A stretch of DNA of 32,000 nucleotides from Clostridia bacterium (GCA_045599485.1 JAZRWA010000038.1:7436-39435); one strand, 5' to 3'; shown: positions 1,622 to 32,000, numbered from the stretch's first letter. Made by a program: numbers and translations. Notes: generated by a model from the sequence alone, not told the origin.

Positions 1622-2323
1622 ATGCCGCTGATTGCTTTGACGCCCAGCTGGGATACCCAGAATGAGCATTTTTATGTTCCCAATGATTATGTGACCGCCG
1701 TGCAGGCGGCGGGCGGTGTGCCCATGGTGTGCTCCTTTGCCGATTCACAGGAAATGGCCGATGAAATGATGGCGCATGCCGATGCGCTGCTGCTGACGGG
1801 CGGCGCCGATGTGGACCCTGCCGTTTACCATGAGGAAATGCTGCCCATCTGCGGTGAGCTGGCACCCATGCGCGACAAGATGGAGCAGATGCTCATCCGT
1901 GCCGCGCTGAAATACAACCGTCCCATGCTCGGCATCTGCCGCGGACTGCAGATGGTCAATGCCGCGCTGGGCGGCACGCTGTATCAGGACATTGCGGAGC
2001 AGTACGGCAAGCAGGTGCTGCATCCCCGCAGTGACCGCCCCCGTGACGGCGTACACAACATGAGCATTGCCGCCGGCTCCATGCTGGAAGCCGCTTACGG
2101 CTGCCGTGAGGTGATGGTCAACAGCCGTCACCATCAGGCCTGCAAGGTGCCCGCGCCCGGTCTCAAGGTGGTGGCTACGGCCGAAGATGGTTTGATCGAA
2201 GGCCTGGAGAGCACCTCCGGCACGCCCATCCTTTGCGTGCAGTGGCATCCCGAATCCATGCGGGCGGCCATTCCCGTGCACATGGCCGTGTTCAACTGGA
2301 TCGTGCATGAGGCTTCCCGATGA
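1622..2323 (+). CDS. gamma-glutamyl-gamma-aminobutyrate hydrolase family protein (class I glutamine amidotransferase-like, peptidase C26)
   Basis: 233 aa ORF with the nucleophile elbow LGICRGLQ and the VQWHPE His motif typical of the PuuD/C26 family. Good RBS. Ends in TGA. Confidence 0.8.
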   Translation: MPLIALTPSWDTQNEHFYVPNDYVTAVQAAGGVPMVCSFADSQEMADEMMAHADALLLTGGADVDPAVYHEEMLPICGELAPMRDKMEQMLIRAALKYNRPMLGICRGLQMVNAALGGTLYQDIAEQYGKQVLHPRSDRPRDGVHNMSIAAGSMLEAAYGCREVMVNSRHHQACKVPAPGLKVVATAEDGLIEGLESTSGTPILCVQWHPESMRAAIPVHMAVFNWIVHEASR

Positions 2324-3018
2324 ACCGAGTGGTCCTGATTGCCGATCTGCACGGCAATCTGCCCGCGCTGGAGGCATTGGAGCAGGATCTGAACCGCCGG
2401 GGGCTGAAGGAGATCTGGTGCCTTGGCGACATCGTGGGCAAGGGTCCTTCCTCTCCATAGACCTTTGACTGGGCCATGGCACACTGCTCGGTGCTGCTGC
2501 GCGGCAACTGGGATGAAGGCATCGGCAAAAAGCTGTTCCCCGCCGATCAGTTCTATTATGATCAGCTGGGACCGGAACGCATGAAAAAGCTGCTCGAGCT
2601 GCCGCAGGAGCATCACACCGTGACCGGCAACAAGCGGGTACGCCTACTGCACGGCCGCCCCATCATGCCGTCCCTCCTTTCCGCCCATGACCCTGCTGAC
2701 AAGCTGATGTGGCTGTTCAAGCCGCAATATGACATTGTGGGCTATGCGGACATCCATCACCCCGAGCTGCGTCCCTTCCGTGACGGCAAGATCATTTTCA
2801 GCATCGGCAGCGTCGGCAACGCTTTAAGCTCGCTGCCCTGCGTGCAGTACAGCATCCTCAGTTGGGAGGAAAACGGCCTGGCAGACATCGCCTTCTGCTT
2901 CGTTCCCTATGACAACGCCCGAGCAGTGCGGGAAGCCGAAGCCGTTGAACTGCCCCGCAGGGACGCCTGGATTCAGGAAGTGACCACCGGCGTTTACGGC
3001 CGTGCCAAATCCACCTGA
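2320..3018 (+). CDS. metallophosphoesterase family protein (YfcE/MJ0936-like) with one in-frame TAG at codon 47
   Basis: The ATG at 2320 overlaps the upstream TGA (ATGA). The frame reads MNRVVLIADLHGNLPALEALEQDLNRRGLKEIWCLGDIVGKGPSSP-TAG-TFDWAMAHCSVLLRGNWDEG... and continues as track ORF 2476..3018 in the same frame. The DxHG and GD motifs lie before the TAG and the GNxD-type motif lies after it. Ends in TGA. Confidence 0.75.
2458..2460 (+). other. in-frame TAG codon (candidate sense/readthrough codon) in the metallophosphoesterase
   Basis: Context is cca TAG acc. Same frame as ATG 2320 and ORF 2476..3018 (all positions are 1 mod 3). Confidence 0.8.
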
Positions 3019-3037
3019 AGGCCCTTCCGACCGCATA

Positions 3038-3079
3038 AAAACCGCCTTTCGCTCTTCGGAACGAAAGGCGGTTTTTTTA
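3038..3079. terminator. bidirectional intrinsic terminator between convergent genes
   Basis: aaaaACCGCCTTTCGctcttcggaaCGAAAGGCGGTttttttt: an 11-bp GC-rich stem flanked by an A-run and a T-run. Confidence 0.8.
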
Positions 3080-3083
3080 TGAA

Positions 3084-4058
3084 TTATTCCGGATCGGCTG
3101 TGTTCTTCTTTTTGCCGTTCTTTTTGGCGCGGCGCGTTTTGAACAGCCGCACCGTGCCGTAACCGACACCGCCGATGATAACGGCCCACGGCAGCGCCGC
3201 CACCGCGAAGATCACAAAGGCTTCCAGCATTTCGCCTACGGCTCCAAAGGAAGCGGCGATCGCCTCGCCGATGCGGTCGAACAGGGTGGGCGTCTTTTCC
3301 CCCTCGCCGCTGTTGTCGGACAGTTCGCGCAGCGTGATGTAAACATAGCTGTTCTGCACTTTGCTGTCGTAGCCGTTCAGCCGTCCCTGATAGGAATCGA
3401 TCAGGTACTGCGTTTCGCTGACGGCTCCTTCCAGCTCGATCAGGTCGGCGATGTCTTCCGCCTGTGCCATCAGGGCGGTCAGCCGCTCCAGCTTGGCACG
3501 CTGGGTATTGAGACGGGTCTGGATATCCTGATAGCTTTCGCTCACATCGTCACTGCTCTCGCTGTAGGAGGAGACCGTACCGATCTTGCCCGCGCCGCTC
3601 AGAAAAGCATCCAGATTCTGAGAAGGCACACGCAGTGTCAGGCTGGTGCGGCGCATTGATTCCTTACCGTCGCCGGAAACGCTGACCGATTCAAAATAGC
3701 CGCCGTTTTCCGTCATCAGCGCCTTGAGCGCCTCATAATCCGCATCATACTGCTGCGTCTTGATGGTCATGTTGCCCGTTCGGATGATCTTGGCGGTCGT
3801 CACATTGCTTTGAACGTCTTCTGCCGTTGAAGCGGTTTCCGCAGCCTCAAAGAGCATCGCAGGAGCGCTGTAACCGGAAGCCAGTCCCGAAGAAAAGACC
3901 ATATCATTGGTCTCATAGGTGCCTTTGGAAGCAGAGGGCGTGCTGCCGCCCGATCTGCTCTTTCCGTTTTCGTAGATCGCCGCGGTGCCAAACACCGCGA
4001 TCGCCGCCGCGGAAAGGATACAAAGTCCTTTGATCAGTCTCTTTTTGTTCAGAATCAT
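3084..4058 (-). CDS. DUF4349 domain-containing membrane-anchored protein
   Basis: Track ORF 3084..4094. The preferred start is MILNKK at 4058, with GGAGGA 7 nt upstream. It has an N-terminal TM/signal segment, a coiled-coil-like middle (QDIQTRLNTQRAKLERLTALM) and a C-terminal TM segment, which matches DUF4349 architecture. Ends in TAA. Confidence 0.65.
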   Translation of the reverse strand: MILNKKRLIKGLCILSAAAIAVFGTAAIYENGKSRSGGSTPSASKGTYETNDMVFSSGLASGYSAPAMLFEAAETASTAEDVQSNVTTAKIIRTGNMTIKTQQYDADYEALKALMTENGGYFESVSVSGDGKESMRRTSLTLRVPSQNLDAFLSGAGKIGTVSSYSESSDDVSESYQDIQTRLNTQRAKLERLTALMAQAEDIADLIELEGAVSETQYLIDSYQGRLNGYDSKVQNSYVYITLRELSDNSGEGEKTPTLFDRIGEAIAASFGAVGEMLEAFVIFAVAALPWAVIIGGVGYGTVRLFKTRRAKKNGKKKNTADPE

Positions 4059-4130
4059 GTCGGTTTCCTCCATACTGTCCTTTTGACCATACAACGAACC
4101 GGAGACACCGTTTATTGCAGCCTTTGCAAA

Positions 4131-4167
4131 GAAAAATACGATGCAGCGGAAGTTTTTTCCGACTGCA
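4131..4167 (-). terminator. weak terminator-like hairpin downstream of rarA
   Basis: Minus strand GCAGtCGGAAaaaacTTCCGCTGC (9 bp with one bulge), with a T-run a few nt downstream. Confidence 0.35.
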
Positions 4168-4187
4168 CCGTATAAAAAGCAATGGAT

Positions 4188-5483
4188 TCAGCGGCTTTTG
4201 TGCGTTCTGATGCGGGCTTCGCTGCCTTGGTCGCTCGGTTCATAGTACACATGATCGCGGACCTCGTCGGGCAGATACTGCTGCTCCACCCAGTGCCCGG
4301 GAAAATCATGCGGATACAGATAGCCTTTGCCGCTCTACAGGCGTTCCGCCCCCGCGTAATGGGTATCCCGCAGCGGCACAGGCACATCGCCCGAGGCTTT
4401 TTCGGCATCCGCCATGGCGGCATCAATGGCACAGACAACGCTGTTGCTTTTGGGGCTTTCGCAGACAGCAATGATCGCCTGGGCGATGGAGAGCCGTGCT
4501 TCGGGCATGCCGACCAATTCCAAGGCTTCACCGGCCGCCACGGCCTGCAGCATGGCTGCCGGGTTAGCGAGCCCCACATCCTCGCTGGCGTGGGCGATCA
4601 CGCGCCGCACGATCATCCGCGGATCGACCCCCGCATAGATGAGCCTTGCAAACCAGAACAGGGCGGCATCGCTGTCCGAGCCGCGAAGGCTTTTGCAGAA
4701 AGCCGACAACATATCATAATACAGGCTGTCATCACAGCGGATGACGGGCTTCTGGATGCTTTCCTACGCCGTTTCAAGGGTGATGCGGATGCCATTGCGC
4801 CCCGTGGGCGTGGTCAGTGCCGCCAGCTCCAGGGCATTGAGCGCCATGCGGACATCGCCGTTGGACACGTTGACAAAATGCTGCAGGGCATCCTCGTCCA
4901 GCTGCACATTCATTTCACCAAGTCCGCGATCCTTGTCCTTCAGGGCGGAGAGCAGAATGGCACGCATATTATCCTGCGTCAGGGGACGGAAGGCAAACAG
5001 CCTGCAGCGGCTGACGATAGCGGGCGTCATAGCCACCATGGGGTTTTCGGTGGTGGAGCCGATAAAGCGGATGATGCCCTCCTCGATGGCGGGCAGCACG
5101 CTGTCGGACTGCGCCTTGCTCCAGCGATGACACTCATCCAACAGAAGATAGGTCGCCTGACCGTACATGGCACGGCGTTCCCTGGCTTCCTACAGCACCT
5201 TGCGCACATCCGCCACGCCGGAGGTGACGGCGTTGAGCCGCACGAAGGCCGAACGCGTCTGCGCGGCGATGACATGCGCCAGCGTGGTCTTGCCGCAGCC
5301 GGGAGGCCCCCAGAAAATGCTGCTGGTCAGCCGGTCCGCCTCCACAGCGCGGCGAAGCAGCTTGCCGGGAGCCAGCAGATGCTCCTGGCCGAAAAACTCA
5401 TCGAGGCTGCGAGCCCGCATGCGCTCTGCCAACGGGGTGTTCTTTTTGATGTTATCCTGTTCCAGTGCATCCAGTAAGCTCAT
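4188..5483 (-). CDS. rarA: replication-associated recombination protein A (AAA+ ATPase, MgsA/RarA/WRNIP1 family) with three in-frame TAG codons
   Basis: Track ORFs 5190..5483, 4764..5168 and 4335..4712, plus an unlisted tail, are all in one frame of 432 codons. The pieces are: ...GPPGCGKTTLAHVIA...VRKVL-TAG-EARERRAMYGQATYLLLDECHRWSKAQSD...ITLETA-TAG-ESIQKPVIRCDDSLYYDMLSAFCKSLRGSD...HYAGAERL-TAG-SGKGYLYPHDFPGHWVEQQYLPDEV...THKSR-TGA. Walker A, Walker B (LLLDECHRW), sensor and C-terminal MgsA motifs are all present in order. Confidence 0.85.
4335..4337 (-). other. in-frame TAG codon 3 in rarA
   Basis: Minus strand ctg TAG agc. Same frame. It is followed by 48 more codons (SGKGYLYPHDFPGHW...) that match the conserved RarA C-terminus, then TGA at 4188..4190. 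Confidence 0.85.
4764..4766 (-). other. in-frame TAG codon 2 in rarA
   Basis: Minus strand gcg TAG gaa. Same frame as start 5483. Confidence 0.85.
5190..5192 (-). other. in-frame TAG codon 1 in rarA
   Basis: Minus strand ctg TAG gaa. Its offset from start 5483 is a multiple of 3. Confidence 0.85.
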
Positions 5484-6247
5484 GATTCATCCTCTACGGT
5501 CAGGTGCGCCACGCAGCCGTTTTTGCCCCATGTCCACAGGTGACTGCGGCTTCCGACGGCGCATTCCATGTGCAGCATGGCAATGCCGTCATCCACCATG
5601 TGCCGCTTGGAATCATTGAGACGCAGGGTATGGTGACCGTAATTCATGTGCCAGGGCTGGGAGTTGACCGCAGAAGGGGCCACGCGCACCGCCTCCGCCG
5701 CCTGATATGCCCAGTTGGGCCACTGTTCGGGCGGTGTGCCGCACATGCGCTGCAGTGGATGACGCTTGCGGATGGGCGCGTCGGGATTTTCGGGCACCCC
5801 CACGGGAATGACGGCGACGATCTTTTCCCCCGCTTCGCACAGCGGCCTGACCTTGGCCTTTTTATAGGTACCGGCCACCCAGCAGGTCGCAAGACCCATG
5901 GCAGCGGCTTCCAGCACAAACGCTTCACCGCTCATGCCGGCGTACAGCAGTCCGAACGGATCGTTCTTTTTTCGCAGGACGACCGCGCATTTGCCGGTGC
6001 CCTCAATGCGTCCCACAAACGGCAGACCCGAGAAAAAGCCCTTGGGGCAATCCATCAGCACGATGCGGGTGCCGGGCATGGAGACCGCCGCCGCTGTTTT
6101 TTTAAGTGCCTCCAGCTGTTCCTCATCGGGGGAAGAAGCATAGGCGCGGCAGCTGCAGCGGTGTTTTAAGGACTGCATCCAGCGTTCCCGCTGTTCCTGC
6201 GTGAAAAAACCGTTCAGCAGGCAGCCATCATCAATCTTTGATCTCAT
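5480..6247 (-). CDS. nitroreductase family protein
   Basis: 255 aa ORF containing the SAVNSQPW motif and a C-terminal fold typical of nitroreductases. Its stop overlaps the rarA start (ATGA). The start is uncertain: M1 at 6247 overlaps the upstream gene by 17 nt, and an internal Met (MQSLKH) is possible. Confidence 0.65.
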   Translation of the reverse strand: MRSKIDDGCLLNGFFTQEQRERWMQSLKHRCSCRAYASSPDEEQLEALKKTAAAVSMPGTRIVLMDCPKGFFSGLPFVGRIEGTGKCAVVLRKKNDPFGLLYAGMSGEAFVLEAAAMGLATCWVAGTYKKAKVRPLCEAGEKIVAVIPVGVPENPDAPIRKRHPLQRMCGTPPEQWPNWAYQAAEAVRVAPSAVNSQPWHMNYGHHTLRLNDSKRHMVDDGIAMLHMECAVGSRSHLWTWGKNGCVAHLTVEDES

Positions 6248-6974
6248 AACCGTTCTCTTCCAATACTTCCAGAGCTGTCCTGCGGGTCAGCTGCAGCTCT
6301 TCTTCTGTCACTTCTTCATCAAAATCGCGGTAGGCATCGCTCCTGAGTTTTTTACCTGTCAGGGTCATGTACCACAGACAGCCCAGCATGTAGCGGGTGC
6401 GGCCCTTATTGGCGTGGAAACCATCGCGATAGACATCGGCGCCGATGTGCGTATACAGGCGTGCCATGGCCTTGCCGGAGGGAATGATCAGATCAAAATG
6501 CTCCTCGGCCGCCGCCTGTTCATAGCAGCGGATGACCGCGGGCAACATCTCCTCAGGTGTTTCGAAAGGCGTCAGACCAAAGCGGGTACAACCGTGGGCA
6601 AAGGTCCACGTCATGTTCAGCACCAGACGGGCCGGCGGGCAGAGGCGCCTTACATACGCGCACAGCTCATGCAGGTAGGGCTGATAAGTCTCATATTCAC
6701 CCGATTTGGGGCTGCACTGTTGCAGCACCACGGCATCCCATTCGTCCAGCAGCAGCGCCTGCTTCAGCGACACCTTGAGCATGGTGCCGATGCCGTTGAT
6801 CTCATAATCATAGACTGCGGCTTCGGACAGCATATTGCGGTAATGGCGGTACAGGCTGCAGCCGCCGATGTACAGATTGACGATGGTGACCTCGTTTTTT
6901 TCGGCACGGCTGATGCCGTTCAGATACCGTGCGCTGTCTGTGCCGAAGCTGTTGCCGATGATCAATACCTTCAT
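6231..6974 (-). CDS. DUF4886 domain-containing protein (SGNH-hydrolase-like)
   Basis: 247 aa with N-terminus MKVLIIGNSFGTDSARYL, typical of DUF4886. Ends in TGA. Confidence 0.6.
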   Translation of the reverse strand: MKVLIIGNSFGTDSARYLNGISRAEKNEVTIVNLYIGGCSLYRHYRNMLSEAAVYDYEINGIGTMLKVSLKQALLLDEWDAVVLQQCSPKSGEYETYQPYLHELCAYVRRLCPPARLVLNMTWTFAHGCTRFGLTPFETPEEMLPAVIRCYEQAAAEEHFDLIIPSGKAMARLYTHIGADVYRDGFHANKGRTRYMLGCLWYMTLTGKKLRSDAYRDFDEEVTEEELQLTRRTALEVLEENGYEIKD

Positions 6975-6995
6975 TAATAATACGCTTCCTTTCCG

Positions 6996-7988
6996 TTATC
7001 GTGTGGTATGCTGAATGCTGTATTGCAGCGTGGCTTCGCTTTCATTGTCTCTGATCCGGCGGGCCGTCACCAGCAGCCGGGTATTGTCATCCCCCGTGCA
7101 GGTGACCAGCACCAGCAATTGATCCCCGACGGCAACATCCACCGCGTGCGGATGCTCGGACAAGCTGTAGAGCCGGCATATGGCGTCTTCCCTGCGTGCG
7201 GCATCGGGGCTGTTCAGATCGTAAATGTTGAGATATTTAAGGCTGCCGTTCAGCAGGCTGATGTCGGAGATGGCAAAGATGACATACCGGCCGTCCTCAT
7301 AGAGGGTGTTGCAGGTGACGAAGGGATTCTGCCGGTAGAAGTTCAGCTGGCGATAGCGGTGCAGCCAGCCGAACATGGCCTCGGTCTTCATATTGTGGCC
7401 GAAAACGATCAGCGCGTTGGGTCGCTTTTCCAGCAGGCAGGATTCATCCAGAAAAAGCGCGCCGTTATCGTTGCGGTGACCGAGATAATCGTGGGTCAGA
7501 TAATAACTGTTGTTGCGCTGCACCACAGCCTGATCCAGATGCCCTTCCACGCTCAGCCAGGCCACGATATCCTTGTTGGTCTTCTGAAGCTTTTTGAAGG
7601 TGTCGGAAACCTTCAGCGTGGGATTGTGGAGGTACGCCGGGACGGTGGTGGGCATGGGCGGCACGGCGGTCGCCTGCGGCCGGGGGGATGCCTGTGTCGG
7701 CTCGGCGGTCGCCTGCGGCGAGGGAACGGCAGGCTGCGGCTCTTCGGTGCGGTAATAGAGGGCCTTCAGCTCTTCCGCCTGACGGAGGCTTTGCGCCTGC
7801 CAGACAAAATAGCGGATCAGCAGAAACGCGCTGACAGCCGCAACGACCGCGAGTAAAAGCATGATGATACGCCGCAGCAGCTCCTTCGGCCGCTTCGGAG
7901 AAGGCGACGGAGCCTCCGGCACCTCGGACACCCTGTACCCACTCACGGTATAGCGGCCCGACCCGTATCGCTTTTTTCTTCCGCCCAT
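6996..7988 (-). CDS. srtB: class B sortase
   Basis: 330 aa with an N-terminal TM anchor and a Pro/Ala/Thr-rich linker. The catalytic domain has His (VFGHNMK), the LVLVTCTGDD Cys motif and a downstream Arg (VTARRI). Ends in TAA. Confidence 0.8.
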   Translation of the reverse strand: MGGRKKRYGSGRYTVSGYRVSEVPEAPSPSPKRPKELLRRIIMLLLAVVAAVSAFLLIRYFVWQAQSLRQAEELKALYYRTEEPQPAVPSPQATAEPTQASPRPQATAVPPMPTTVPAYLHNPTLKVSDTFKKLQKTNKDIVAWLSVEGHLDQAVVQRNNSYYLTHDYLGHRNDNGALFLDESCLLEKRPNALIVFGHNMKTEAMFGWLHRYRQLNFYRQNPFVTCNTLYEDGRYVIFAISDISLLNGSLKYLNIYDLNSPDAARREDAICRLYSLSEHPHAVDVAVGDQLLVLVTCTGDDNTRLLVTARRIRDNESEATLQYSIQHTTR

Positions 7989-8026
7989 CCTTTTTCCTGT
8001 GCCTTTCTGTCAGACATTCATACTAT

Positions 8027-8054
8027 AGTATACCACGCTTTCATTTCTGTGCAA
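8027..8054 (-). promoter_or_regulatory. candidate promoter of the srtB operon (TTGCAC-16 nt-TGgTATACT)
   Basis: The minus strand reads TTGCACagaaatgaaagcgTGgTATACT. It overlaps a perfect 12-bp palindrome, ATACTATAGTAT (8020..8031). Confidence 0.4.
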
Positions 8055-8091
8055 ACACTTTTTGGTTTCCGTTCAAATACAGCAAAAATAC

Positions 8092-8119
8092 TTGACCGCG
8101 GACACAACATGATTATAAT
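8092..8119 (+). promoter_or_regulatory. candidate sigma-A promoter of the ATP-grasp operon (TTGACC-16 nt-TATAAT)
   Basis: TTGACCgcggacacaacatgatTATAAT, read directly, about 65 nt upstream of the first CDS. Confidence 0.55.
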
Positions 8120-8184
8120 AAAAAAGCAGACAAAGAAGTCCGTTTTCTTTGTTATATTTATTTTTATACGGTATAGATGGAGGG

Positions 8185-9513
8185 ATGACCGTGCACGACA
8201 TCCAAGCGCTGAGCGGGCACGCCGATGCCATCAACGAGCTGCTGGCCCGTTACGGCGTTAAATTCGGCATCTACAAAAACGGCGTATTCAAAGAACAGCT
8301 GTTCCCCTTTGACGCCATTCCGCGCGTCATTGAGGCAGAGGATTTTGCCGTTCTCGAAAAAGGTCTCAAGCAGCGTGTCACAGCGCTCAATGCCTTCATC
8401 GCCGATATCTACGGTGAAAAGAAGATCATCCGGGACAAAGTCGTTCCCGAAGAATTTGTGTTCGGCAGCCCGGGGTACCTTTTGCAGTGCGAGGGACTGA
8501 AGCCCCCCAAGGGCATCTGGTCCCACATCAGCGGCATCGACCTGGTGCAGGCCAAGGATGGCAGCTGGTACATTCTGGAGGATAATCTTCGTGTGCCCTC
8601 CGGTGCCTCCTACCCCATGATCGCCCGTGAGCTCAGCCGCCGCGCCGCGCCCCGCACCTTCCAGAACAATGCCGTGGCCGAAAACCGCGATTATGCCGAA
8701 CTGCTCAAGGCAACCATGGACCATGTCAACACCGGCGGCATCAATGTGATCCTCACTCCCGGCCGTTACAACGCCGCCTATTTTGAGCACAGCTATCTGG
8801 CGGAAAAGACCGGCGCCCGGCTGGCCAGCGGCAGCGAGCTGACGGTGGAGGACGGCCGCCTGTACTTCATCGGCTACACCGGCAAAAAAGAGCCCGTCGG
8901 CACGGTGTACCGCCGCATTTCCGATGATTTCCTTGATCCCATGAATTTCCGCGCGGATTCGCTCATCGGCATTCCGCACATCTTTGACGCCTTCCGCTCC
9001 GGCAATGTGGCGCTGATGAACGCCCCTGGCAACGGCGTGGCGGATGACAAGGGCATCTACTATTTTGTGCCCAAAATGGTCCGTTATTATCTGAACGAGG
9101 AACCCATTCTGCAAAATGCCCCCACCTATCTGCCCTTCTATGACGAGGACATGAAATATGTGCTCGATCACTTTGACACGCTGGTGCTCAAGGATGTAGC
9201 AGAAGCCGGCGGCTACGGCGTGGTGTTTGGCAGCAAGATGACGGCACAGCAGAAGGAAGACTTTATCGCCCTGCTCAAAAAGGACCCCCGCCGCTTCATC
9301 GCCCAGGAGGTCATCGACTTCCGCGATCTGGACATCATTGAAAACGGCGAAGCCGTTCCCCGCAAGGCCGATTTGCGCGCCTTTGTGCTGATGGGCAGTG
9401 AGCCCATGGTATGGAAAAGCGGCCTGACTCGTTTCTCCCGCAATCCCGATTCCTTTATCGTCAACAGTTCTCAGGGAGGAGGCTTTAAGGATACATGGGT
9501 ATTATCTCGCTGA
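8185..9513 (+). CDS. circularly permuted type 2 ATP-grasp protein (DUF404/DUF407 family)
   Basis: Track ORF 8149..9513. The AT-rich first 12 codons are probably leader. GGAGGG directly abuts ATG 8185, so GTG 8191 is an alternative start. Family hallmark SGIDLVQAKDGSWYILEDNLRVPSGASYPMIAR is present. Ends in TGA. Confidence 0.8.
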   Translation: MTVHDIQALSGHADAINELLARYGVKFGIYKNGVFKEQLFPFDAIPRVIEAEDFAVLEKGLKQRVTALNAFIADIYGEKKIIRDKVVPEEFVFGSPGYLLQCEGLKPPKGIWSHISGIDLVQAKDGSWYILEDNLRVPSGASYPMIARELSRRAAPRTFQNNAVAENRDYAELLKATMDHVNTGGINVILTPGRYNAAYFEHSYLAEKTGARLASGSELTVEDGRLYFIGYTGKKEPVGTVYRRISDDFLDPMNFRADSLIGIPHIFDAFRSGNVALMNAPGNGVADDKGIYYFVPKMVRYYLNEEPILQNAPTYLPFYDEDMKYVLDHFDTLVLKDVAEAGGYGVVFGSKMTAQQKEDFIALLKKDPRRFIAQEVIDFRDLDIIENGEAVPRKADLRAFVLMGSEPMVWKSGLTRFSRNPDSFIVNSSQGGGFKDTWVLSR

Positions 9514-10157
9514 TCAACGCCGACAAGCTGTACTGGCTTGGGCGCTATACCGAACGTGTATATACCACCTTGCGGCTCTTTGCGCAAAGCTTTGACAAGC
9601 TGATCGACACCGACCAGCTGGCGTATAACAGCTTTTGCGCCGCGGTGGAGATCCCCGCCATCTACACCTCGGGCGAGGATTTTGTGGAGCGTTATCTGTT
9701 TGACCCCGACGATCCCAACTCCGTGCTGTCCAACCTGACCCGTGCCTTTGACAACGCCGTCACCCTGCGTGAAGAGATCGGCAGCGAATGCGTCAGCTAC
9801 ATTCAGCTGGCCATCTACGCCATCAACAAGGCACACGGCAGCCAAAGCCTGCTCGTGGACCTGCAGCATGTGATCGACCACATTCTTTCCTTCTGGGGAC
9901 TGGCGGATGACCTGATCCCCGATGAAAATGTGCGCAACATCATCAAGACCGGCAAGCGTGTGGAGCGGCTCGACCTGTATGCCCGCCTGCACCAGTCCCG
10001 TGAGGAGCTGCAGCGCGAGCTGTACCGTCTGACCGACCGCATCACCCGCACCAGTCTTTCCTACAATGTGGAGCATCTGTCTCTTTTGAAAATACTGGTC
10101 AATCTGAACGATATACCGTATAATGATATTGTGGAGCAGGTAGAAGGCCTGATCTGA
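9495..10157 (+). CDS. alpha-E domain-containing protein (DUF403)
   Basis: 220 aa, with N-terminal ADKLYWLGRYTERVYTTLRLF matching the alpha-E signature (YWlGRY.ER). It overlaps the upstream gene by 19 nt. Confidence 0.75.
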   Translation: MGIISLINADKLYWLGRYTERVYTTLRLFAQSFDKLIDTDQLAYNSFCAAVEIPAIYTSGEDFVERYLFDPDDPNSVLSNLTRAFDNAVTLREEIGSECVSYIQLAIYAINKAHGSQSLLVDLQHVIDHILSFWGLADDLIPDENVRNIIKTGKRVERLDLYARLHQSREELQRELYRLTDRITRTSLSYNVEHLSLLKILVNLNDIPYNDIVEQVEGLI

Positions 10158-10190
10158 AATCAAGCATCTGAAAAGGGGAGGAAATGTGTG

Positions 10191-10973
10191 ATGATCCGTC
10201 GGCTGGGGTTTTCTTTTCAGCTGGGGCTCACCTTTTCCTCCTCTGTTTGCTGTCACCGTTTTACCCTGCGGTGCATGCCGCAGACCACCCCGCTGCAGCA
10301 GCCGGAGGACATCAGCATCACCCTGGAGCCCAACTGTCCGTACTGGATCGGCCGTGATTACGCCGGTCTGAAGCTGCTCGGCTTCGCCCGGGAAGCCCAC
10401 ACAGCACTGAAGCTGACCGTCAGCGGCATCGTGGCGAACGAGGACCCTTCAAAGGGACTTTCCCTTCTTGCAGGAGAGCCGTTGGGGGCTTTTTCCCTGC
10501 AGACGCCGCTGACTATGCCCGGCCCCGCCCTGCGGACGCTTCATGGCATGCTGCCTGTTTTTTCCGACGCGGAGGCGACAGCGCTGTCCATCATGGACTT
10601 GCTGGCGGAGCGTTTTTGCTACACGCCGGGGGCCACCGAAAGCGGCACCGCCGCCGAGGCCGCTGCCCAGGCCATGCAGGGCGTATGTCAGGATGAAGCG
10701 CACATCATGCTGTCGCTTCTTCGCCTGCGCGGCATTCCCTGCCGTTATGTGGTGGGCTTTATGGCAGGCGAAGGGGCCTCCCATGCCTGGGTGGATGTGC
10801 TCCTGCGTGACAGCTGGCAAAGCTTTGACCCCACCAATCACCGCAGGATTACCGCCGATTACATCCGTGTTTCCCACGGACTGGACGCCAATGACTGCCC
10901 CTTGAACCGCGGGCTGTTTACCGGCACTGCCGTACAGGATGGCAGCAGTACAGCGCAAGTATGGGAGGTTTGA
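10191..10973 (+). CDS. transglutaminase-like cysteine protease family protein
   Basis: Carries the GVCQDEAHIMLSLLRLRGIPCRYVVGF...SHAWVDV...SFDPTN Cys-His-Asp arrangement of transglutaminase cores. RBS GGGGAGG. GTG 10188 is an alternative start. Confidence 0.75.
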   Translation: MIRRLGFSFQLGLTFSSSVCCHRFTLRCMPQTTPLQQPEDISITLEPNCPYWIGRDYAGLKLLGFAREAHTALKLTVSGIVANEDPSKGLSLLAGEPLGAFSLQTPLTMPGPALRTLHGMLPVFSDAEATALSIMDLLAERFCYTPGATESGTAAEAAAQAMQGVCQDEAHIMLSLLRLRGIPCRYVVGFMAGEGASHAWVDVLLRDSWQSFDPTNHRRITADYIRVSHGLDANDCPLNRGLFTGTAVQDGSSTAQVWEV

Positions 10974-10976
10974 CTG

Positions 10977-11939
10977 ATGATCCGCAGCACCCTTATCACC
11001 GTCACCGAAGTCGGACTGCCGGTGGATGAAAAACTGTATATCCGCAAAAACCGCATTGAGCCCGAAAGCGGCTCCAACGGCCGCCGCATCAGCATTGTGA
11101 CCGGCATCCACGGCGATGAGCTGGAAGGACAATATGTCTGCTGGCAGGTGCAGCAGCGCATTGCCGCCCACCCCGAATGCCTGCTGGGGACCGTGGACAT
11201 CTATCCTGCCATGAATCCCTTCGGCATCGAATCGGTCAGCCGCGGCATTCCCGCCTTTGATCTGGATATGAACCGCATCTTTCCGGGCAGCGAGGAAGGC
11301 GACATGAATGAGTATATCGCCTCCCGCATCGTGCATGATCTGGAAGGCAGCACGCTGGCGATCGATATTCATGCCTCCAACATTTACCTGACCGAGATCC
11401 CCCAGATCCGCATCAATGAGAACAGTGCCGAAAGGCTGGTGCCCATCGCGCAGAAGGCCAATGTGGATTTTATCTGGGTACACGGTGCCTCCACTGTGCT
11501 GGAAGCCACGCTCGCCCACAGCCTCAACAGCCGCGGTGTGGATACCCTGGTGGTGGAAATGGGCGTGGGCATGCGCATCACCAAGGAATACGGCGATCAG
11601 CTGACCGAAGGTATCTTCAGTCTGATGAAGGAACTGAATATCTGGAGTGGCGAAACAACGCCGGTCCGTACGCCCATCATCTCCTCCGACCCCAATGAAG
11701 TGGAATTTTTGAACGCCCCCGCCGCCGGCGTATTTGTCAAAACGCTGTCGCACGGCGCTATACTGAAAAAGGGGGATGAGATCGGCCTGATCATCGATCC
11801 CTTGAGCGGCAAAACGCTGTACCCTGTGCTTTCCCCCTGCAACGGCTGGCTGTTTACCGTACGTGAATACCCCATTGTCGATCAGGGATCGCTGATGGCA
11901 CGCATCCTAAAAAGGGAGATCGGAGGGCTGCCGCAATGA
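10977..11939 (+). CDS. succinylglutamate desuccinylase/aspartoacylase (AstE/AspA, M14-like) family protein, zinc ligands intact
   Basis: 320 aa with VTGIHGDELEG (HxxE), NRIFPG and AIDIHAS motifs. It starts 3 nt after the upstream stop. Confidence 0.75.
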   Translation: MIRSTLITVTEVGLPVDEKLYIRKNRIEPESGSNGRRISIVTGIHGDELEGQYVCWQVQQRIAAHPECLLGTVDIYPAMNPFGIESVSRGIPAFDLDMNRIFPGSEEGDMNEYIASRIVHDLEGSTLAIDIHASNIYLTEIPQIRINENSAERLVPIAQKANVDFIWVHGASTVLEATLAHSLNSRGVDTLVVEMGVGMRITKEYGDQLTEGIFSLMKELNIWSGETTPVRTPIISSDPNEVEFLNAPAAGVFVKTLSHGAILKKGDEIGLIIDPLSGKTLYPVLSPCNGWLFTVREYPIVDQGSLMARILKREIGGLPQ

Positions 11940-12917: not shown

Positions 12918-15422
12918 TCAGCCCTCCGTTTTGCGGCTGCCGGGCTTTTTCAGGCTTTCGGCAACGGGCTTTTTGAGCAGATCATAATAGTAATCCACAT
13001 ACGCGGCAATGCTTTCCGCCGTATCCCAATCATCGAGCAGCGTCACATACCCCTGCAGTGAGGCAGCCTTCGCCCGCAATGCGCGGGAAGAGGCGCCGAT
13101 AAAGGTACGGCTCAGATAGCGGCTGTTTTTGGCATCCTGAATCAGGTTGGAGGCCGCCGCATTGCCGTCCAGGGCGATGATGACCGAAGGACGGCGCTTG
13201 AAGATCTCAAATGCGACACTCTTGTACACTCCCTGCGGGGAGGATTCGAGCGCCACCCGCACCTTGACACCGCTCTTTTGCAGGCGTATCCGTTCGGCTT
13301 CGCTGATCTGTGCCGGAACGAAGGCAAATACCGGCAGATCCGCCCCCGCCTTGTCCAGAATATAGCGCTCGTAACCGCCAAGAGACGGGCCGATGACCAC
13401 AAAGAATTTGCCGCTCCCGGCTCTTTTGAGCAGATCATCCAACAGTCGGCAATCCGCCTCCCGAAGGCGGGTACGGCGAACGGCGTTGTTGAAGCTGCCG
13501 CCCGCGAGCACCACCGGTACACGATCCTACGGCAGCGGAACGATCTGCGCCTTCAACGCATCGGCACTGGCAAGCCGCCCTGTATCAAACAACTGGATCG
13601 TTCCTGTATCCTGCAGGATGCGGTCACGGTAGAACGCCGCTTCCGTGCCCTCCGCGCACTGCGCACGAAAGGCGGTTTTTTTCTGTTCAAACGCCTGCAT
13701 GGACCCTTCGATGATCTCTTTTTCCGCCTGCCGCATGCGCAGCAGCTCCGCATCGGTCAATTCCAGCATACGCTCCAGTGAAAGCTGCTCATCGATGGAA
13801 TCGGTACCGTAAAGCGCGCCGCCATCGGTACCCTGCACGCAGTAGATGCCCGCGTTCAGATACTGCCGCAGCGGATGCCGGCTCAGCCGGGACAGATTGT
13901 TGAGGCGCACGTTGGAGGTGATCTGAAATTCCAGCACTGCCTGCCTGCGCCGCAGCAGTTCCAGCAGCGACCGACCCTTTTCGCTTTTCAGGTTGGCGGT
14001 GTAAAGGCCGTGACCGATGCGTACATGCGGGAAAGCCTGCCCCGGCAGCAGCGCTTTTTCGACTGAAAGCAGGCTGTTGAGCACGTTGTCGGGCAGGGCG
14101 TCGTTTTCGCCGGCGTGGAGACGCACCACAAAGGACGGATGCTCCCGGGCGATGCGCAGCACCGTGTTCATCACCGGCTGCAATTCCCGGATATCGTTCA
14201 TTTCCTCGCCCACAAAATCGCTGCCCGCCACATAGGGGCCGCCGGCGACCGCCCGCAGCACGCGCAGGTTTTCGTCATAGGGGTTTTCCGGCAGACCGCC
14301 GGTGCGCCCCATCATCAGGGGGATGCGCCGCAGCGCCGCCAGAAAGCGCAGCGTTACCCCGGTTTCCTCCGTCACGGCGGGCATGACAGCATGAATCTGC
14401 GCAAGCGTTTCCGGCGCTTCGGACGCCTTTACCAGCGCGGTATCGGAGATCTCGGCATAATGGACACCGCTGCGCCGATAGCTGCGGGCGACCCACAGCA
14501 GCGTATCCTGATACAGGGTATTTTTGCCGTAAACCGGGTGTTTTCGATCCGTTTCCATCTGTCTGAGGGCTGCGATGATGTCCGCATCAGGCAGGGAATC
14601 GATGTTTTTCAGCTCAATTCTGTCTTCCGCGGGCGTGCCCTTGGTGAATACATAACGGTACAGATACACCTTTTCCAGATCGGTAAACACCGCCTGGCCA
14701 TCCTTCAGCACCGCCAGCGAGGCCCGCACCCGCGGAATATTGTAGGCGCTGTGTTCATTCATCATCAGCGCGGCAAAATTGATGAAGGTGTTGTCATCAA
14801 ACAGCCGCTCCCGGTATTTGCCCTGAAGAGTGATATCGCCCAGTTTTTCCTCCGTGGCGCTTCTGCGGGTCTCCATCAGGCGCTGCTGCTCCTCCGAAAG
14901 ACGCAGTCCCAGCTTTTTGATATAATAATAGGGATAACGCAGCTGATGATGGATGCCCAGCGCGATGAGCAGATCGGGGCTGAGGTTGCCGCTGCGATGG
15001 CTGTGCAGATCGGAACGGAATTTCAATTCCTCACGGATGTAGGTCTTGACCAGCGTTTTATGCCGGTCCAGCTCGTACTCCTTGGTCTGGCTCATCAGCG
15101 TTTTGGCAATGGCGGGGATGGCCGCCCGGCGCTCGATCTGACCGTCGGGATAAATGTTGGCCACCTTGGTATCGGCAAGCCGCAGGATATACACCCGGCG
15201 GTTTTCGCCGTCCACATAGCACGGCACCTCGCCGCGGATCTGCTTCAGGCCGTTTTCATCAAAGCTGACCGGCAGACCGCACACCGCCGCAAGGTTGCTG
15301 ATCAGGTTGCCTGTGCCGTGGTTGGGCGTGCGCAGCACATAAAAGAGCCGTTCCCCTTCCATCATCAGCGACACGATGATATCTTTCTCTTTATCCAGAT
15401 ACAGCGTTCCGAATGGCTTCAT
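12918..15422 (-). CDS. adenosine/AMP deaminase-family (amidohydrolase) protein fused, across an in-frame TAG, to a C-terminal Rossmann-like (possibly SLOG/LOG-like) domain
   Basis: Track ORFs 13527..15527 and 12918..13514 are in the same frame (835 codons from MKPFGTLYL at 15422, GGAGGA RBS). Deaminase motifs present: SDLHSHRSG (HxH), RLHAGEN, RIGHGLY, VQGTDGGALYGTD. The junction reads ...KAQIVPLP-TAG-DRVPVVLAGGSFNN...VVIGPSLGGYERYILDKA...IIALDGNAAASNLIQDAK... Ends in TGA. Alternative reading: two genes, with the second starting at GTG 13514. Confidence 0.6.
13527..13529 (-). other. in-frame TAG at the deaminase / C-terminal-domain junction
   Basis: Minus strand ccg TAG gat. Both flanking ORFs share the frame (13529-13514 = 15 nt). 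Confidence 0.7.
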
Positions 15423-16933: not shown

Positions 16934-16996
16934 GCATGCAAACTGCAACTTTTACAAGCTGCAGTTGCAATCTATTTTTGAAAGGAAGATCCAACC

Positions 16997-23614: not shown

Positions 23615-23624
23615 AGGTACGACA

Positions 23625-23709
23625 ATTCCAAGGGGTGCTGGCTCTGCCGGCTGAGATGAACCAAGGTTCGAACCCTCAAACCTGATCCGGGTAATACCGG
23701 CGTAGGAAT
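23625..23709 (+). promoter_or_regulatory. TPP (THI-box) riboswitch aptamer
   Basis: attccaaGGGGTGCtgg...ggCTGAGAtgaa...ACCCtcaaACCTGATCCGGGTAATACCGGCGTAGGAAt matches the conserved THI element (GGGGUGC, CUGAGA, ACCUGAUC.GG.UAAU.CC.GCGUAGGAA). P1 is formed by attcc/ggaat. Confidence 0.9.
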
Positions 23710-23732
23710 GCGAGTAAAGTGCTTTTGATGTG

Positions 23733-23803: not shown

Positions 23804-24439
23804 ATGTTTTCTAAGTTTGCCAAGATTCTCCCCTCCGTCTGGGGTCTGCTCGCCGCTCTGGCCGTGGTGGGCGTTGTGCTGTACTGCATGAAGGGCTCCC
23901 GCACCAAGTGGACCGCCCGTATGCTGGCCAATGCCGCCATCTCCATCGCTCTGGCCTCCGTGCTGTCCTACATCCGCCTCTACAAGCTGCCGCAGAACGG
24001 TTCCATCACCGTTGCCTCCATGCTGCCCATCTTCATGTTTGCCTATGCCTACGGCGTGGGCCCCGGCCTGTTTGTGGGTCTGGCCTATGGCTTTGTGCAG
24101 TGGATGCAGGATGGTTTCTGGATGCTGACCCCTGTGGAGGGCGTCATGGACTATCTGCTGGCCTTCGCCGTGCTGGGTCTGTGCGGTCTGTGTCGCAAGC
24201 TGCCCAAGCAGTATGCGCTGCCCGTCGGCTGCATCGTGGGTGCCCTGGCCCGTGCCATCGTCGCCATCACCGCCGGTGTTATCTTCTTTGCGGAAAACGC
24301 CCCCGTGGGCCAGTCCGCCCTCGTGTACTCCATGGGCTACAACGGTCTGTACCTGATCCCCGACACTGCCATCTGCGTGGTGCTGGCCTTCATTCCCCAG
24401 ATCCGCGACCTGGCCCACAAGCTGTCCCTGAATCGCTGA
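23804..24439 (+). CDS. thiT: energy-coupling factor transporter S component ThiT (thiamine)
   Basis: 211 aa multi-TM protein directly downstream of a TPP riboswitch. ThiT-like sequence (ISIALASVLSYI..LP.GGS.T...LPI). RBS AAAGGAGG. Confidence 0.8.
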   Translation: MFSKFAKILPSVWGLLAALAVVGVVLYCMKGSRTKWTARMLANAAISIALASVLSYIRLYKLPQNGSITVASMLPIFMFAYAYGVGPGLFVGLAYGFVQWMQDGFWMLTPVEGVMDYLLAFAVLGLCGLCRKLPKQYALPVGCIVGALARAIVAITAGVIFFAENAPVGQSALVYSMGYNGLYLIPDTAICVVLAFIPQIRDLAHKLSLNR

Positions 24440-27840: not shown

Positions 27841-28839
27841 TCAGCCGTTGCCCTCGCCAAATTCGCTCGCCCGGCAGAAGCCGACCTGTCCGTCACTCGT
27901 CATCACGATCAACCATTCCTCTCCCTGAACGCCAATGATCATATCCTCCGAATAAAGACCGGCACTGCCGATGATCTCCGAGGAAACCTCCGGTTTTTCA
28001 TAAATGGCGGGGCCGTTCTTTGCGATGTAGAAATCCTCTCCGGGCATCAACTGCGGAAAAGCACACACCACCGCCGCCTTCTGTTCTCCAAAGGCCAGAT
28101 ATGCCGTCATCATGTACCCGGTCAGGCTGTGCTCCCCGGTACCAATACGCACCAGTGACCACTGTTCTCCCTTCTCCAACACCACCACTGGTGTGCGATT
28201 GTAGAATTTGCCCAGCGAGGCAGCAGACTGATTTGCCGCCGAGCGCAGGTGCAGTCGGTCATCCGCATTCCGGTTATTCACATAAGCAAAACTTTCCGTA
28301 TCCAGCAGCTGTCTTGCCTCCGCTTCAGTCATGGGCAGCAGGGTAAGATCCGCCTCCTGCAGCAGTTTGCCCGTGGGCATCGTGCTGTGCCACAGGCCGT
28401 AATCCACGCCGTCATTGCGTCCGGGTACAGACGCGTCCATGCAGATACCCTCTTCTGTCAGGAGCATCAGCCTCTCATGCCACAGCTCCACTCCTTCGCA
28501 CACCCAGCGTCCCTGTCCCTCATGGACGATCACAATGCATATTTCCGTTGTGCCATGAACTGTCCCCAGCAAAAGCTCTTGGGGGCCGCTATGCCACGTA
28601 TCCAGCCAGTAGCTTACGGGCAGCGGTCCCGAGGTGACCGTGCCGCCATCCTCCTCCATGATCCGCAGATAGCGGCAGCCCGCTGCGGGGTCCTCCGCCA
28701 GTACCGCTACTGCCGCCTCTTTTTCTTCCTGCGCGATCAGCGTCTCGCCCTCACGAAGCAGGAAGGAAGCGTCCACCTCTGCCGCCGCGGCCCCGCATAG
28801 CAAAAGCATCAGGAACAATACCGTCATTATCTTTTTCAT
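27841..28839 (-). CDS. lipoprotein with bacterial SH3-like domain, function unknown
   Basis: 332 aa with lipobox-like MKKIMTVLFLMLLLCGAAA. SH3b-like segment: RLHLRSAANQSAASLGKFYNRTPVVVLEKGEQWSLVRIG. Confidence 0.55.
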   Translation of the reverse strand: MKKIMTVLFLMLLLCGAAAAEVDASFLLREGETLIAQEEKEAAVAVLAEDPAAGCRYLRIMEEDGGTVTSGPLPVSYWLDTWHSGPQELLLGTVHGTTEICIVIVHEGQGRWVCEGVELWHERLMLLTEEGICMDASVPGRNDGVDYGLWHSTMPTGKLLQEADLTLLPMTEAEARQLLDTESFAYVNNRNADDRLHLRSAANQSAASLGKFYNRTPVVVLEKGEQWSLVRIGTGEHSLTGYMMTAYLAFGEQKAAVVCAFPQLMPGEDFYIAKNGPAIYEKPEVSSEIIGSAGLYSEDMIIGVQGEEWLIVMTSDGQVGFCRASEFGEGNG

Positions 28840-28941
28840 TGAAAAACCTTCCTTTTGTGTTGTTTCACTCTATATAACGGACCATATGCCGTCCTTGTTG
28901 CAAGAAGAATGATTGTTTACAATTGTCGTTTCAAAGCACAC

Positions 28942-29498: not shown

Positions 29499-29526
29499 AC
29501 TCGTTCCCCTCCTTGCATTCTTTCGG

Positions 29527-29555: not shown

Positions 29556-29570
29556 GCGTTGCCGAAGTGT

Positions 29571-29612
29571 AAAAAAAAGGAGGGTGCCCTCCTTCCGGAA
29601 AAGGCACCCCCT
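29571..29612 (-). terminator. intrinsic terminator after the padR operon
   Basis: Minus strand GGGGTGCC-loop-GGCACCCTcctttttttt. Confidence 0.6.
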
Positions 29613-29621
29613 TCAGCTTCT

Positions 29622-30761: not shown

Positions 30762-31069
30762 TTGCTTTCCCTCCTGATAAACTCATAAACTTTCATGACT
30801 TCCTCCCATTCGCGAAGGAAATCCCCGATGCGGCTGCGGCCGATATCCGTCACCGCGTAATACTTGCGCAGCCTGCCGTTATGCTCCATGGTGTACACGG
30901 TCAGGGCACTGTCTGCCTCCAGACGGCGCAGCACCGGGTACAGGGTGGATTCCGATACCGCCATCACCTCTTCCAGATCCTTCACCAGCTGATATCCGTA
31001 GGAATCGCCATAGGTCAGCAGCTTCAGGATGCAAGCCTCCGTCAGACCACGTTTTAACTGATTATCCAA
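30758..31069 (-). CDS. padR: PadR family transcriptional regulator
   Basis: 103 aa with a TTG start and GAGGAGG 8 nt upstream. Winged-helix signature: ILKLL..GDSYGYQLVKDLE.....SESTLYPVLRRLEADSAL. Confidence 0.85.
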   Translation of the reverse strand: MDNQLKRGLTEACILKLLTYGDSYGYQLVKDLEEVMAVSESTLYPVLRRLEADSALTVYTMEHNGRLRKYYAVTDIGRSRIGDFLREWEEVMKVYEFIRRESK

Positions 31070-31114
31070 TGCGTGAACCTCCTCAAGGGATTCATATTAT
31101 CGTTAACGCAATAA

Positions 31115-31162
31115 CCCCTTGGCAACAATACTATACATCGCATAGTATTATCTGTCAAGGGG
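31115..31162. repeat. long imperfect inverted repeat (about 20-nt arms, 7-nt centre)
   Basis: CCCCTTGgcaacaATACTATacatcgcATAGTATtatctgtCAAGGGG. It overlaps the padR promoter and lies just 3' of the ygiQ stop. Confidence 0.7.
31130..31158 (-). promoter_or_regulatory. candidate padR promoter (TTGACA-17 nt-TATAGT)
   Basis: The minus strand reads TTGACAgataatactatgcgatgTATAGT. The ATACTAT..ATAGTAT inverted repeat covers the spacer and the -10 element. Confidence 0.55.
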
Positions 31163-31168
31163 TATTTT

Positions 31169-32000
31169 TTATCTTTTTTTATTTGCACCCGGTCGGGAGC
31201 GCGTCAGCCGCTCCTCATGCCCGCGCGGGGGCTGCACCAGGCAGCCCGGCCCGTAACCGATCAGGTCTTCCCGCCCGCAGTTGCGCAGGGCCTCGCGGAT
31301 GAGCGCAAAATTCTACGGTTTTTTCCATTGCAGCAGCGCACGCTGCATATCCTTTTCTTTCTGTGTGGTAGGTACATATACCGGCTTCATCGTTCTCGGG
31401 TCAATGCCGGTATAATACATACAGGTGCTCAGCGTGCCCGGTGTCGGATAAAAATCCTGCACCTGCTCGGGCTGCACGCCCTTACGCTTCAGGTACAACG
31501 CCAATTCGACAGCATCCCGCATGGTACTGCCGGGATGGCTGCTCATCAGATAGGGCACCAAAAACTGCTTCATGCCCAGCTGACGGTTCACCTGTTCATA
31601 CTGGCGGCAGAACTCCTCGTACACCGCGTTGCGGGGTTTACCCATACACTGCAGGGTGTGATCGGCAATGTGCTCCGGCGCTACCTTCAATTGTCCGCTG
31701 ATGTGGTGCGCGCAGAGCTCCCGCATTACCCGCTGACGATCCTTGTCCGCCAGAATGTAGTCAAACCGCAAGCCCGATCGGATAAACACCTTTTTGATGC
31801 CCGGAATTTGCCGCATCCGCCTCAGTGTGTGCAAAAAATCCTCATGACTGACTTCCATGTTGGGACAGGGCTCGGGGAACAGACACTGCCGGTTCGGGCA
31901 ACAGCCATGCTGCAGCTGTTTTTTGCAAGCAGGCTTGCGGAAATTCGCCGTCGGTCCGCCCACATCGTGGATGTACCCCTTGAAGTCGGGGAAGGTGGTC
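31169..32000 (-). CDS. ygiQ: YgiQ family radical SAM protein (UPF0313), C-terminal part, with one in-frame TAG (5' end beyond the right window edge)
   Basis: Track ORF 31313..31963 (..[16 protein letters not shown]...VAPEHI...LMSSHPGST...ALLQWKKP) stops at a TAG. The same frame continues [31 protein letters not shown]... for 47 codons to TAA at 31169..31171. I translated this base by base and it resembles the conserved YgiQ C-terminal tail. Confidence 0.8.
31313..31315 (-). other. in-frame TAG codon in ygiQ
   Basis: Minus strand ccg TAG aat. It lies 144 nt (48 codons) upstream of the TAA in the same frame. Confidence 0.8.

Follow-up and report, generated by a model that had tools for sequence, protein, structure and literature searches.

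A 32,000-nucleotide stretch of DNA from a Clostridia bacterium (GCA_045599485.1, contig JAZRWA010000038.1, positions 7436-39435; hereafter the window, with positions counted from its first letter) raises the question of whether the amber triplet TAG, a stop in the standard genetic code, is read there as an amino acid. Four conserved genes of the window, coding for a metallophosphoesterase, the RarA (MgsA) protein, an adenosine-deaminase-like protein, and the radical SAM protein YgiQ, are interrupted by TAG. Comparison with sister genomes and with more distant relatives leads to the view, held with a probability of about 0.68, that the ribosomes of this clade read through in-frame UAG and insert an amino acid, most likely glutamic acid (Glu).

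TAG codons inside conserved genes

A scan of species-representative genomes for RarA yielded 80 loci, all from uncultured Clostridia and labelled Christensenellales, Christensenellaceae, Aristaeellaceae, or Oscillospiraceae. One of them (L001), from the horse-faeces metagenome-assembled genome (MAG) GCA_024404275.1, shows 88% DNA identity to positions 1607-9155 of the window, and the other 79 (L002-L080), with a RarA identity of at most 81%, form the outgroup. Further contigs of the clade were reached via exact-protein and cluster look-ups; they belong to the same MAG (L082, L084, and L089/L090, besides L001), to Logan SRR27361835 (L081, L085, L091), and to ENA ERZ27247129 (L083, L092). The sister contigs are 87-90% identical in DNA to the window and 91-96% identical among themselves, and the clade DNA sampled in total amounts to ~90 kb. 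By its sequence, the organism of the window is an uncultured, Christensenellales-like member of Clostridia, lying within a genus-level clade that includes the sister genomes.

The first-pass annotation of the window had reported six in-frame TAGs in the four genes, and all six were located where it had placed them (Table 1). It had also held that the genes are broken by TAG only, which was borne out: there is no internal TAA or TGA in any of the four and no frameshift, and each aligns end to end with its sister orthologues. In the metallophosphoesterase, Pfam Metallophos_2 spans residues 3-180, TAG included, with the D-x-H and GD motifs situated before the TAG and GNWD after it; the orthologues in L001 and L081 are unbroken, and the TAG column holds Arg and Glu in two PDB homologues. 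The possibility that this TAG lies upstream of the true start, at ATG 2476, was rejected, since the D-x-H and GD motifs precede the TAG. The whole of RarA is covered by Pfam AAA, AAA_assoc_2, and MgsA_C together, across all three TAGs, and 416 of 432 residues are common with L001, the same number being common with L081.

In the deaminase-like protein, residues 312-582 correspond to Pfam A_deaminase. Its gene, described at first pass as a fusion, is indeed one uninterrupted open reading frame (ORF) in two sister assemblies (L081, 832 aa; L083, 834 aa), and the interpretation of its TAG as a true stop between two genes was rejected on this ground. Standard-code calling splits the gene at the TAG, and the 198-aa piece at 12918-13514 has been recorded as a separate protein. 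The C-terminal domain that follows the TAG, of ~200 aa, has no match in Pfam or NCBIfam and, within the clade, never occurs apart from the deaminase-like domain. In YgiQ, Pfam DUF3362 runs across the TAG, and the tail N..L[IV].EAL...GR.DLIG...CL is conserved beyond the TAG position among 120 homologues. The conserved tail, together with the substitution pattern given below, led to the rejection of the ygiQ TAG as a genuine terminator.

The clade as a whole carries 15 distinct TAG sites in 11 genes. Codon 98 of rarA is TAG in three assemblies, those of the window, L001, and L081, and the TAG of ygiQ occupies the same codon in the window, L084, L085, and L092 (three separate assemblies, four contigs). 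Extra in-frame TAGs are found in murE, murD, an ftsL-like gene, and a second metallophosphoesterase gene (L090, shared with L091), as well as in feoB and a HAD hydrolase gene (L084, L092), and the deaminase-like gene has TAGs at other positions in the sisters (codon 178 in L082 and codon 833 in L081). Six murE gene calls from different assemblies all end after ...AVPGRA at 330 aa, one of these cut calls being on an NCBI contig that probably comes from the window's own genome. TAG sites have been gained, lost, and shared among the species of the clade.

Selection was followed as the ratio of nonsynonymous to synonymous substitution rates (dN/dS). Downstream of every TAG tested it is 0.02-0.08, indistinguishable from the upstream value of 0.02-0.12, at a dS of 0.35-1.8. 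It equals 0.079 downstream of the TAG in the metallophosphoesterase gene, 0.02-0.07 in all four segments of rarA between the TAGs, 0.03-0.05 in the 202 codons after the deaminase-like TAG, and 0.03-0.04, with dS >1, in the 47 codons after that of ygiQ. TAG is thereby shown to lie inside conserved genes under selection, and the sequence following it, as judged from the substitution pattern, to be translated in frame.

The origin of the data in MAGs and metagenome contigs, together with the G-to-T character of a GAG-to-TAG change, typical of oxidative damage, could suggest that the TAGs are pseudogene lesions or artefacts of sequencing, assembly, or consensus calling. Such an explanation is scarcely credible, since identical TAGs occur in assemblies from different projects, dN/dS stays low downstream, RarA 383 requires two base changes (GAA to TAG), and no other nonsense types or frameshifts accompany the TAGs, even though murE and murD are among the affected genes. 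The signature of a pseudogene (mixed nonsense types, frameshifts, and dN/dS near 1) is absent, TAG being the sole interruption. Decay and assembly error are therefore taken as excluded by the sharing of TAGs across assemblies and by the low dN/dS, in agreement with the earlier argument against random decay. The broader proposal of the first-pass annotation, that TAG either has a sense meaning or undergoes nearly complete suppression, has been strengthened by the cross-assembly conservation, the selection, the additional genes, and the lack of TAG terminators in ~59 clade genes.

Public standard-code annotation of a sister MAG splits murE, murD, and the ftsL-like, phosphoesterase, deaminase-like, and rarA genes into two pieces each, and omits ygiQ, feoB, and the HAD hydrolase gene; this systematic misannotation is due to the TAGs.

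Table 1. Genes, TAG sites, and other features of the window and of the sister contigs (window positions unless a contig is named; the last column gives the codons of other clade members at sites where TAG varies)
Feature	Position	Strand	Remarks	Counterpart codons
Metallophosphoesterase gene	2320..3018	+	232 codons, one in-frame TAG	
Metallophosphoesterase TAG, codon 47 (site label MPE49)	2458..2460	+	TAG in window	GAG, GAG
rarA/mgsA	4188..5483	-	431 codons, three in-frame TAGs	
rarA TAG, codon 98	5190..5192	-		
rarA TAG, codon 240	4764..4766	-	TAG in window	GAG, GAG
rarA TAG, codon 383	4335..4337	-	TAG in window	GAA, GAA
Adenosine-deaminase-like gene	12918..15422	-	834 codons, one in-frame TAG	
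Deaminase-like TAG, codon 632	13527..13529	-	TAG in window	CAG, CAG, GAG
Deaminase-like C-terminal domain	12918-13526	-	follows the TAG	
ygiQ (radical SAM), 3' part	31169..32000	-	runs off window end; TIGR03904 and Pfam DUF3362 matches	
ygiQ TAG	31313..31315	-	47 codons before ygiQ TAA	
Deaminase-like TAG, codon 178			TAG in L082	GAG, GAG, CAG (CAG in closest sister)
Deaminase-like TAG, codon 833			TAG in L081	GAG, GAG, GAG
HAD hydrolase TAG			TAG in L092	GAG
FeoB TAG, codon 394			TAG in L084	CAG
Genes split or omitted in sister MAG	L090 7735-8400, 9372-9869, 10001-11455, 12508-13884; L084 4737-5366; L082 9191-11695			
Antisense ORF opposite rarA	4182-5477	+	431 aa	
Antisense ORF opposite oppA	16952-18604	-		
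ATP-grasp operon	8149-12868	+		
TPP riboswitch	23621-23725	+	Rfam RF00059, 78 bits	
Thia_YuaJ thiamine transporter gene	23804-24439			
SH3-domain gene	27841-28839	-		
TAG in frame with SH3-domain gene	28870-28872	-	11 codons before its ATG	

Terminators and the limits of the clade

No gene ends in TAG among the 29 that end inside the window (span 1622..31171), of which 20 are terminated by TGA and nine by TAA. The absence of TAG and the number of TGA terminators agree with the first-pass count, and its figure of ten TAA among 30 genes has been corrected to nine among 29. In the outgroup, TAG terminates ~10% of genes (85 of 852 in 79 loci, as found with a simple caller) and ~7% of the rarA genes, and zero of 29 has a P of 0.047 at a base rate of 10%, or ~0.05-0.12 with these two rates. 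As TAG is a rare stop in the order anyway, the terminator count of the window is weak evidence alone; the addition of 30 further genes from sister contigs gives zero TAG in ~59 genes (P ~0.002-0.014). Standard-code calls of the clade that do end in TAG are interrupted conserved genes, with a single exception, the deaminase-like gene of L081, in which an ambiguous TAG lies two codons before TGA. The share of TGA among terminators is 69% in the window versus ~46% in the outgroup loci, GC content not being controlled for in this comparison; a higher share of TGA is the direction expected if termination leans on release factor 2 (RF2).

Outside the clade, TAG occurs inside rarA in none of the 79 outgroup loci, about five of which end rarA with TAG. 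The nearest outgroups have plausible TAG terminators, and several relatives end genes with TAG. A homology scan of 1.3 Mb from the outgroups, with a filter for the signature of a sense frame, left no in-frame TAG that was convincing. Two other ways of searching the outgroups were abandoned: a composition flag produced 172 hits, mostly in antisense frames and at gene junctions, and was too unspecific, while the unfiltered homology scan was contaminated by conserved antisense frames. The sharing of TAGs within the clade and their absence from the outgroups argue that the change is confined to this genus-level clade and is older than the split of the sampled species.

The amino acid, its decoding, and the stage of the change

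The amino acid had been regarded at first pass as unassignable from six sites; the codons of the sister genomes now narrow the choice, with Glu as the best fit. At eight variable sites TAG is present in one clade member and another codon in the others (Table 1). These counterparts are mostly GAG or GAA and less often CAG, whereas AAG, TAY, TGG, TCG, and TTG are never found at the eight sites, despite accounting, by usage, for ~59% of the codons one step away from TAG. The commonest partner, GAG, requires a G/T transversion and not the easier C/T transition. The column of RarA 240 holds Glu in 75 of 80 related sequences (the 79 outgroup loci and L001), with Q in four and A in one. The TAG of murE corresponds to the Glu of the GRxE motif, which is E, E, E, and Q in four solved MurE structures, and that of murD to the Glu of the HNxEN motif in the closest solved (Firmicute) MurD. 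The column of RarA 98 is variable (K53 R6 A6 Q5 E4 D4 in the same 80 sequences), RarA 383 is Gly in 70 of 80 more distant relatives, and the TAG column of YgiQ reads K72 E18 A9 D8 R4 Q3 among the 120 homologues. Because the sister codons are mostly GAG or GAA and TAGs fall on conserved Glu columns (MurE and RarA 240), TAG most likely encodes Glu, which we put forward as the best single assignment with good, though not full, confidence.

Lys, suggested by the two Lys-rich columns, was rejected as the encoded residue, since no sister codon is AAG and the conserved columns hold acidic residues. The same two columns, occupied by clade-wide TAGs, could be accommodated if UAG meant pyrrolysine (Pyl) genome-wide, as in the archaeal 'Pyl code' but in a bacterium; no other natural sense meaning of UAG is established for prokaryotic cells, and organisms that use Pyl tend to avoid TAG stops. 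This is nevertheless very improbable, as the TAG sites follow Glu codons and never AAG, they include conserved acidic positions (MurE GRxE, RarA 240), and no methylamine methyltransferase or pyl gene was seen in the loci reached, which cover ~90 kb only.

The insertion of Glu at UAG would proceed by steps proposed because every other stop-codon reassignment works so. UAG would be decoded by a tRNA with a CUA anticodon, probably derived from tRNA-Glu (CUA is one base from CUC, and the simplest source would be a paralogue of tRNA-Glu(CUC)) and charged by glutamyl-tRNA synthetase (GluRS). UGA and UAA would be terminated mainly or wholly by RF2, with release factor 1 (RF1) lost or too weak to compete. 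A tblastn search with E. coli RF1, a query not near to the clade, gave no match in the fetched loci, and the outgroup loci contained no tRNA-Glu or tRNA-Gln usable as a template.

Several observations weigh against a reassignment to Glu. ARAGORN detected no tRNA genes in the window or in any clade locus (~90 kb), and a guessed pattern of the tRNA-Glu(CUA) anticodon arm, run against metagenome contigs, gave one chance match inside coding sequence. All the sequences come from metagenome assemblies. At three sites a sister genome carries CAG, a codon for glutamine (Gln), and Gln ranks second among the residues of both conserved Glu columns. Two of the clade-shared TAGs, those in rarA (codon 98) and ygiQ, fall on variable columns dominated by Lys, with Glu also present there. 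Normanly, Kleina, and Miller reportedly found in 1990 that engineered tRNA-Glu amber suppressors of E. coli were largely mischarged with Gln. Finally, the rarity of TAG and its restriction to certain contexts fit leaky suppression in competition with RF1 equally well as a completed reassignment.

The three CAG sites and the second place of Gln in the conserved columns make Gln, or a mixed insertion of Glu and Gln, the main alternative as to the residue. Gln is what TAG encodes in recoded gut phages and under several eukaryotic codes. A suppressor with a CUA anticodon derived from tRNA-Gln would account for the CAG codons at feoB394, at deaminase-like 632 (two sisters of the three), and at 178 (the closest sister), as well as for the Gln residues in the RarA 240 and MurE GRxE columns, and C-to-T is the easiest mutation giving TAG. 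The reading of UAG as Gln is improbable, however: a synonymous CAG-to-TAG transition should then dominate, but most variable sites have only Glu codons in the sisters, the strongly conserved columns are those of Glu, and both deaminase-like sites that show Gln are also E/Q-variable among genomes without TAG. The deaminase-like columns 178, 632, and 833 toggle between GAG, CAG, and TAG in genomes that are 89-96% identical, the order across genomes being GAG, GAG, TAG, CAG at 178 and TAG, CAG, CAG, GAG at 632. TAG may bridge the codons of Glu and Gln, or be read ambiguously.

TAG accounts for six of the 9,680 codons of the window, which contain 635 Glu codons, i.e., for ~0.6 per 1000 codons or ~1% of the number of Glu codons. 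Its context was counted at 14 distinct sites, from the window (e.g., 2449-2469 and 5181-5201) and from L082, L084, L090, and L092. The preceding base is G at 12 of them (background 0.405, P = 7e-4), and the following base is A at nine, G at four, C at one, and T at none (background of A 0.277, P = 0.005). This bias suggests that the places at which TAG is tolerated are restricted by how efficiently it is decoded or by a competing release factor; a purine on the 3' side is said, from work of Bossi and of Miller and Albertini in 1983, to be the classical context in which E. coli suppresses amber codons well. With TAG rare and found almost only as G-TAG-A/G, the change looks young or only partly efficient.

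The strong context bias also keeps alive a version of events in which RF1 is retained and UAG is formally a stop, suppressed incompletely and in a context-dependent manner by a suppressor that is efficient in G-UAG-A, so that the code is ambiguous rather than reassigned. This version, which we find doubtful but deserving of serious attention, agrees with the scarcity of TAG, with the flanking bases, with the L081 TAG two codons before the deaminase-like TGA, harmless under either interpretation, and with the lack of TAG in the likely highly expressed genes reached (those of EF-P, FtsZ, ArgS, and OppA). It is harder to reconcile with murE and murD, which are essential and single-copy, and with rarA and its three TAGs, as little product of these genes would be left without near-complete suppression; nor does it agree with zero TAG terminators in ~59 genes or with the retention of some TAGs across species separated by a dS of ~0.4-0.8.

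As regards the capture of UAG for Glu, the clade appears to present its early stage, with TAG purged from terminators, fixed in essential genes (murE, murD), and toggling with GAG and CAG between sister species. On balance we favour, with some reserve, the interpretation that UAG has come to stand for a canonical amino acid, Glu, in this lineage, as the first such capture in bacteria, and that the lineage represents a natural living intermediate of stop-codon capture.

Other features of the window and relation to known codes

The window has a G+C content of 57%, and its real genes are recognisable by a G+C of ~0.6/0.4/0.73 at codon positions 1/2/3. Opposite almost all genes runs a codon-aligned antisense ORF nearly as long as the gene, a trap for gene callers; the length of these ORFs results from the avoidance of TTA, CTA, and TCA codons. 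The ORF opposite rarA is unbroken, whereas the true gene has three TAGs, and a further example lies opposite oppA. Upstream of the SH3-domain gene there is a TAG in frame with it, conserved in L085 and L086, which looks intergenic, the signal peptide beginning at the ATG of the gene. A thiamine pyrophosphate (TPP) riboswitch, conserved in L082, is located upstream of the gene for a Thia_YuaJ thiamine transporter. An operon kept in all the clade genomes, comprising genes for a circularly permuted ATP-grasp protein, an alpha-E domain protein, a transglutaminase-like protein, and two AstE/AspA-like (M14-type) proteins, looks, from its domain content, like a peptide-modification or amidoligase-type cassette.

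Full-text searches of the literature to mid-2026 found no bacterial reassignment of UAG, consistent with the first-pass remark that no general TAG code has been described for a free-living Firmicute. According to the Codetta study, a screen of >250,000 genomes, all known bacterial stop reassignments concern UGA (PMC8629427). The KACI screen of 2026, covering ~2.7 million assemblies, lists no bacterial UAG reassignment, and its authors warn that TAA and TAG calls tend to get dismissed as contamination (10.64898/2026.04.02.715157). The only UAG code cited in gTranslate is the archaeal UAG-to-Pyl (bioRxiv 10.64898/2026.05.24.727570). The present clade would be the first bacteria described in which amber has changed its meaning to an amino acid.

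The archaeal UAG-to-Pyl code (Kivenson et al. 2025, cited in 10.64898/2026.05.24.727570), as far as it is presented in the citing work, resembles the present case in that every UAG is sense in a prokaryotic cell and in that gene calling with the standard code hardly lowers the coding density, with the result that standard pipelines miss the change. It differs in belonging to Archaea and in using a non-canonical amino acid served by a dedicated synthetase and tRNA, whereas the sites described here track Glu. TAG-recoded gut phages (crAss-like and Lak; Ivanova 2014, Borges 2021/2022) have in common with the clade the gut habitat and TAG in a subset of genes, and employ suppressor tRNAs, but they infect hosts with the standard code and read TAG as Gln, whereas here chromosomal housekeeping genes (murE, murD, rarA) are affected and Glu is indicated. 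The bacterial UGA codes (table 4, Trp, and table 25, Gly) are likewise chromosomal, clade-confined changes from stop to sense, for which a new anticodon and the loss of a release factor are expected. That factor is RF2 there and would be RF1 here, and those codes are found mostly in AT-rich or reduced genomes in which the reassigned codon is common, in contrast to a GC-balanced genome in which TAG is rare. The eukaryotic UAR-to-Glu codes, of peritrich ciliates (table 30) and Blastocrithidia (table 31), share the meaning of UAG as Glu, but their termination depends on eRF1 and UAA (the other UAR codon) is reassigned too, while TAA ends nine of the 29 window genes. A natural amber suppressor that inserts Glu and has become fixed in a lineage is, to our knowledge, undescribed. 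In amber-suppressor and RF1-deleted E. coli (supE-type strains and C321.deltaA; PMC4434889, PMC11903333), UAG becomes a sense codon through a CUA tRNA, whether or not RF1 is lost as well, and the efficiency of suppression depends on the 3' base; these strains are engineered, however, and the residues usually inserted are Gln, Tyr, Ser, Leu, or Lys.

If UAG is indeed read as Glu in this clade, a new code would be added to those of bacteria. It would expose a systematic error of annotation, PGAP and other callers splitting rarA, murE, murD, and ygiQ in these MAGs, and the split genes also distort completeness and pseudogene statistics. A natural Glu-inserting amber suppressor pair would be indicated, of interest for genetic code engineering, and the finding would have a bearing on how phages and hosts interact in the gut, a habitat in which phages with recoded TAG are common. 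It would also mean that the capture of amber can begin in a free-living gut Firmicute of balanced GC content, with neither AT pressure nor a reduced genome behind it, and it would provide a natural intermediate on which the codon-capture and ambiguous-intermediate models could be tested.

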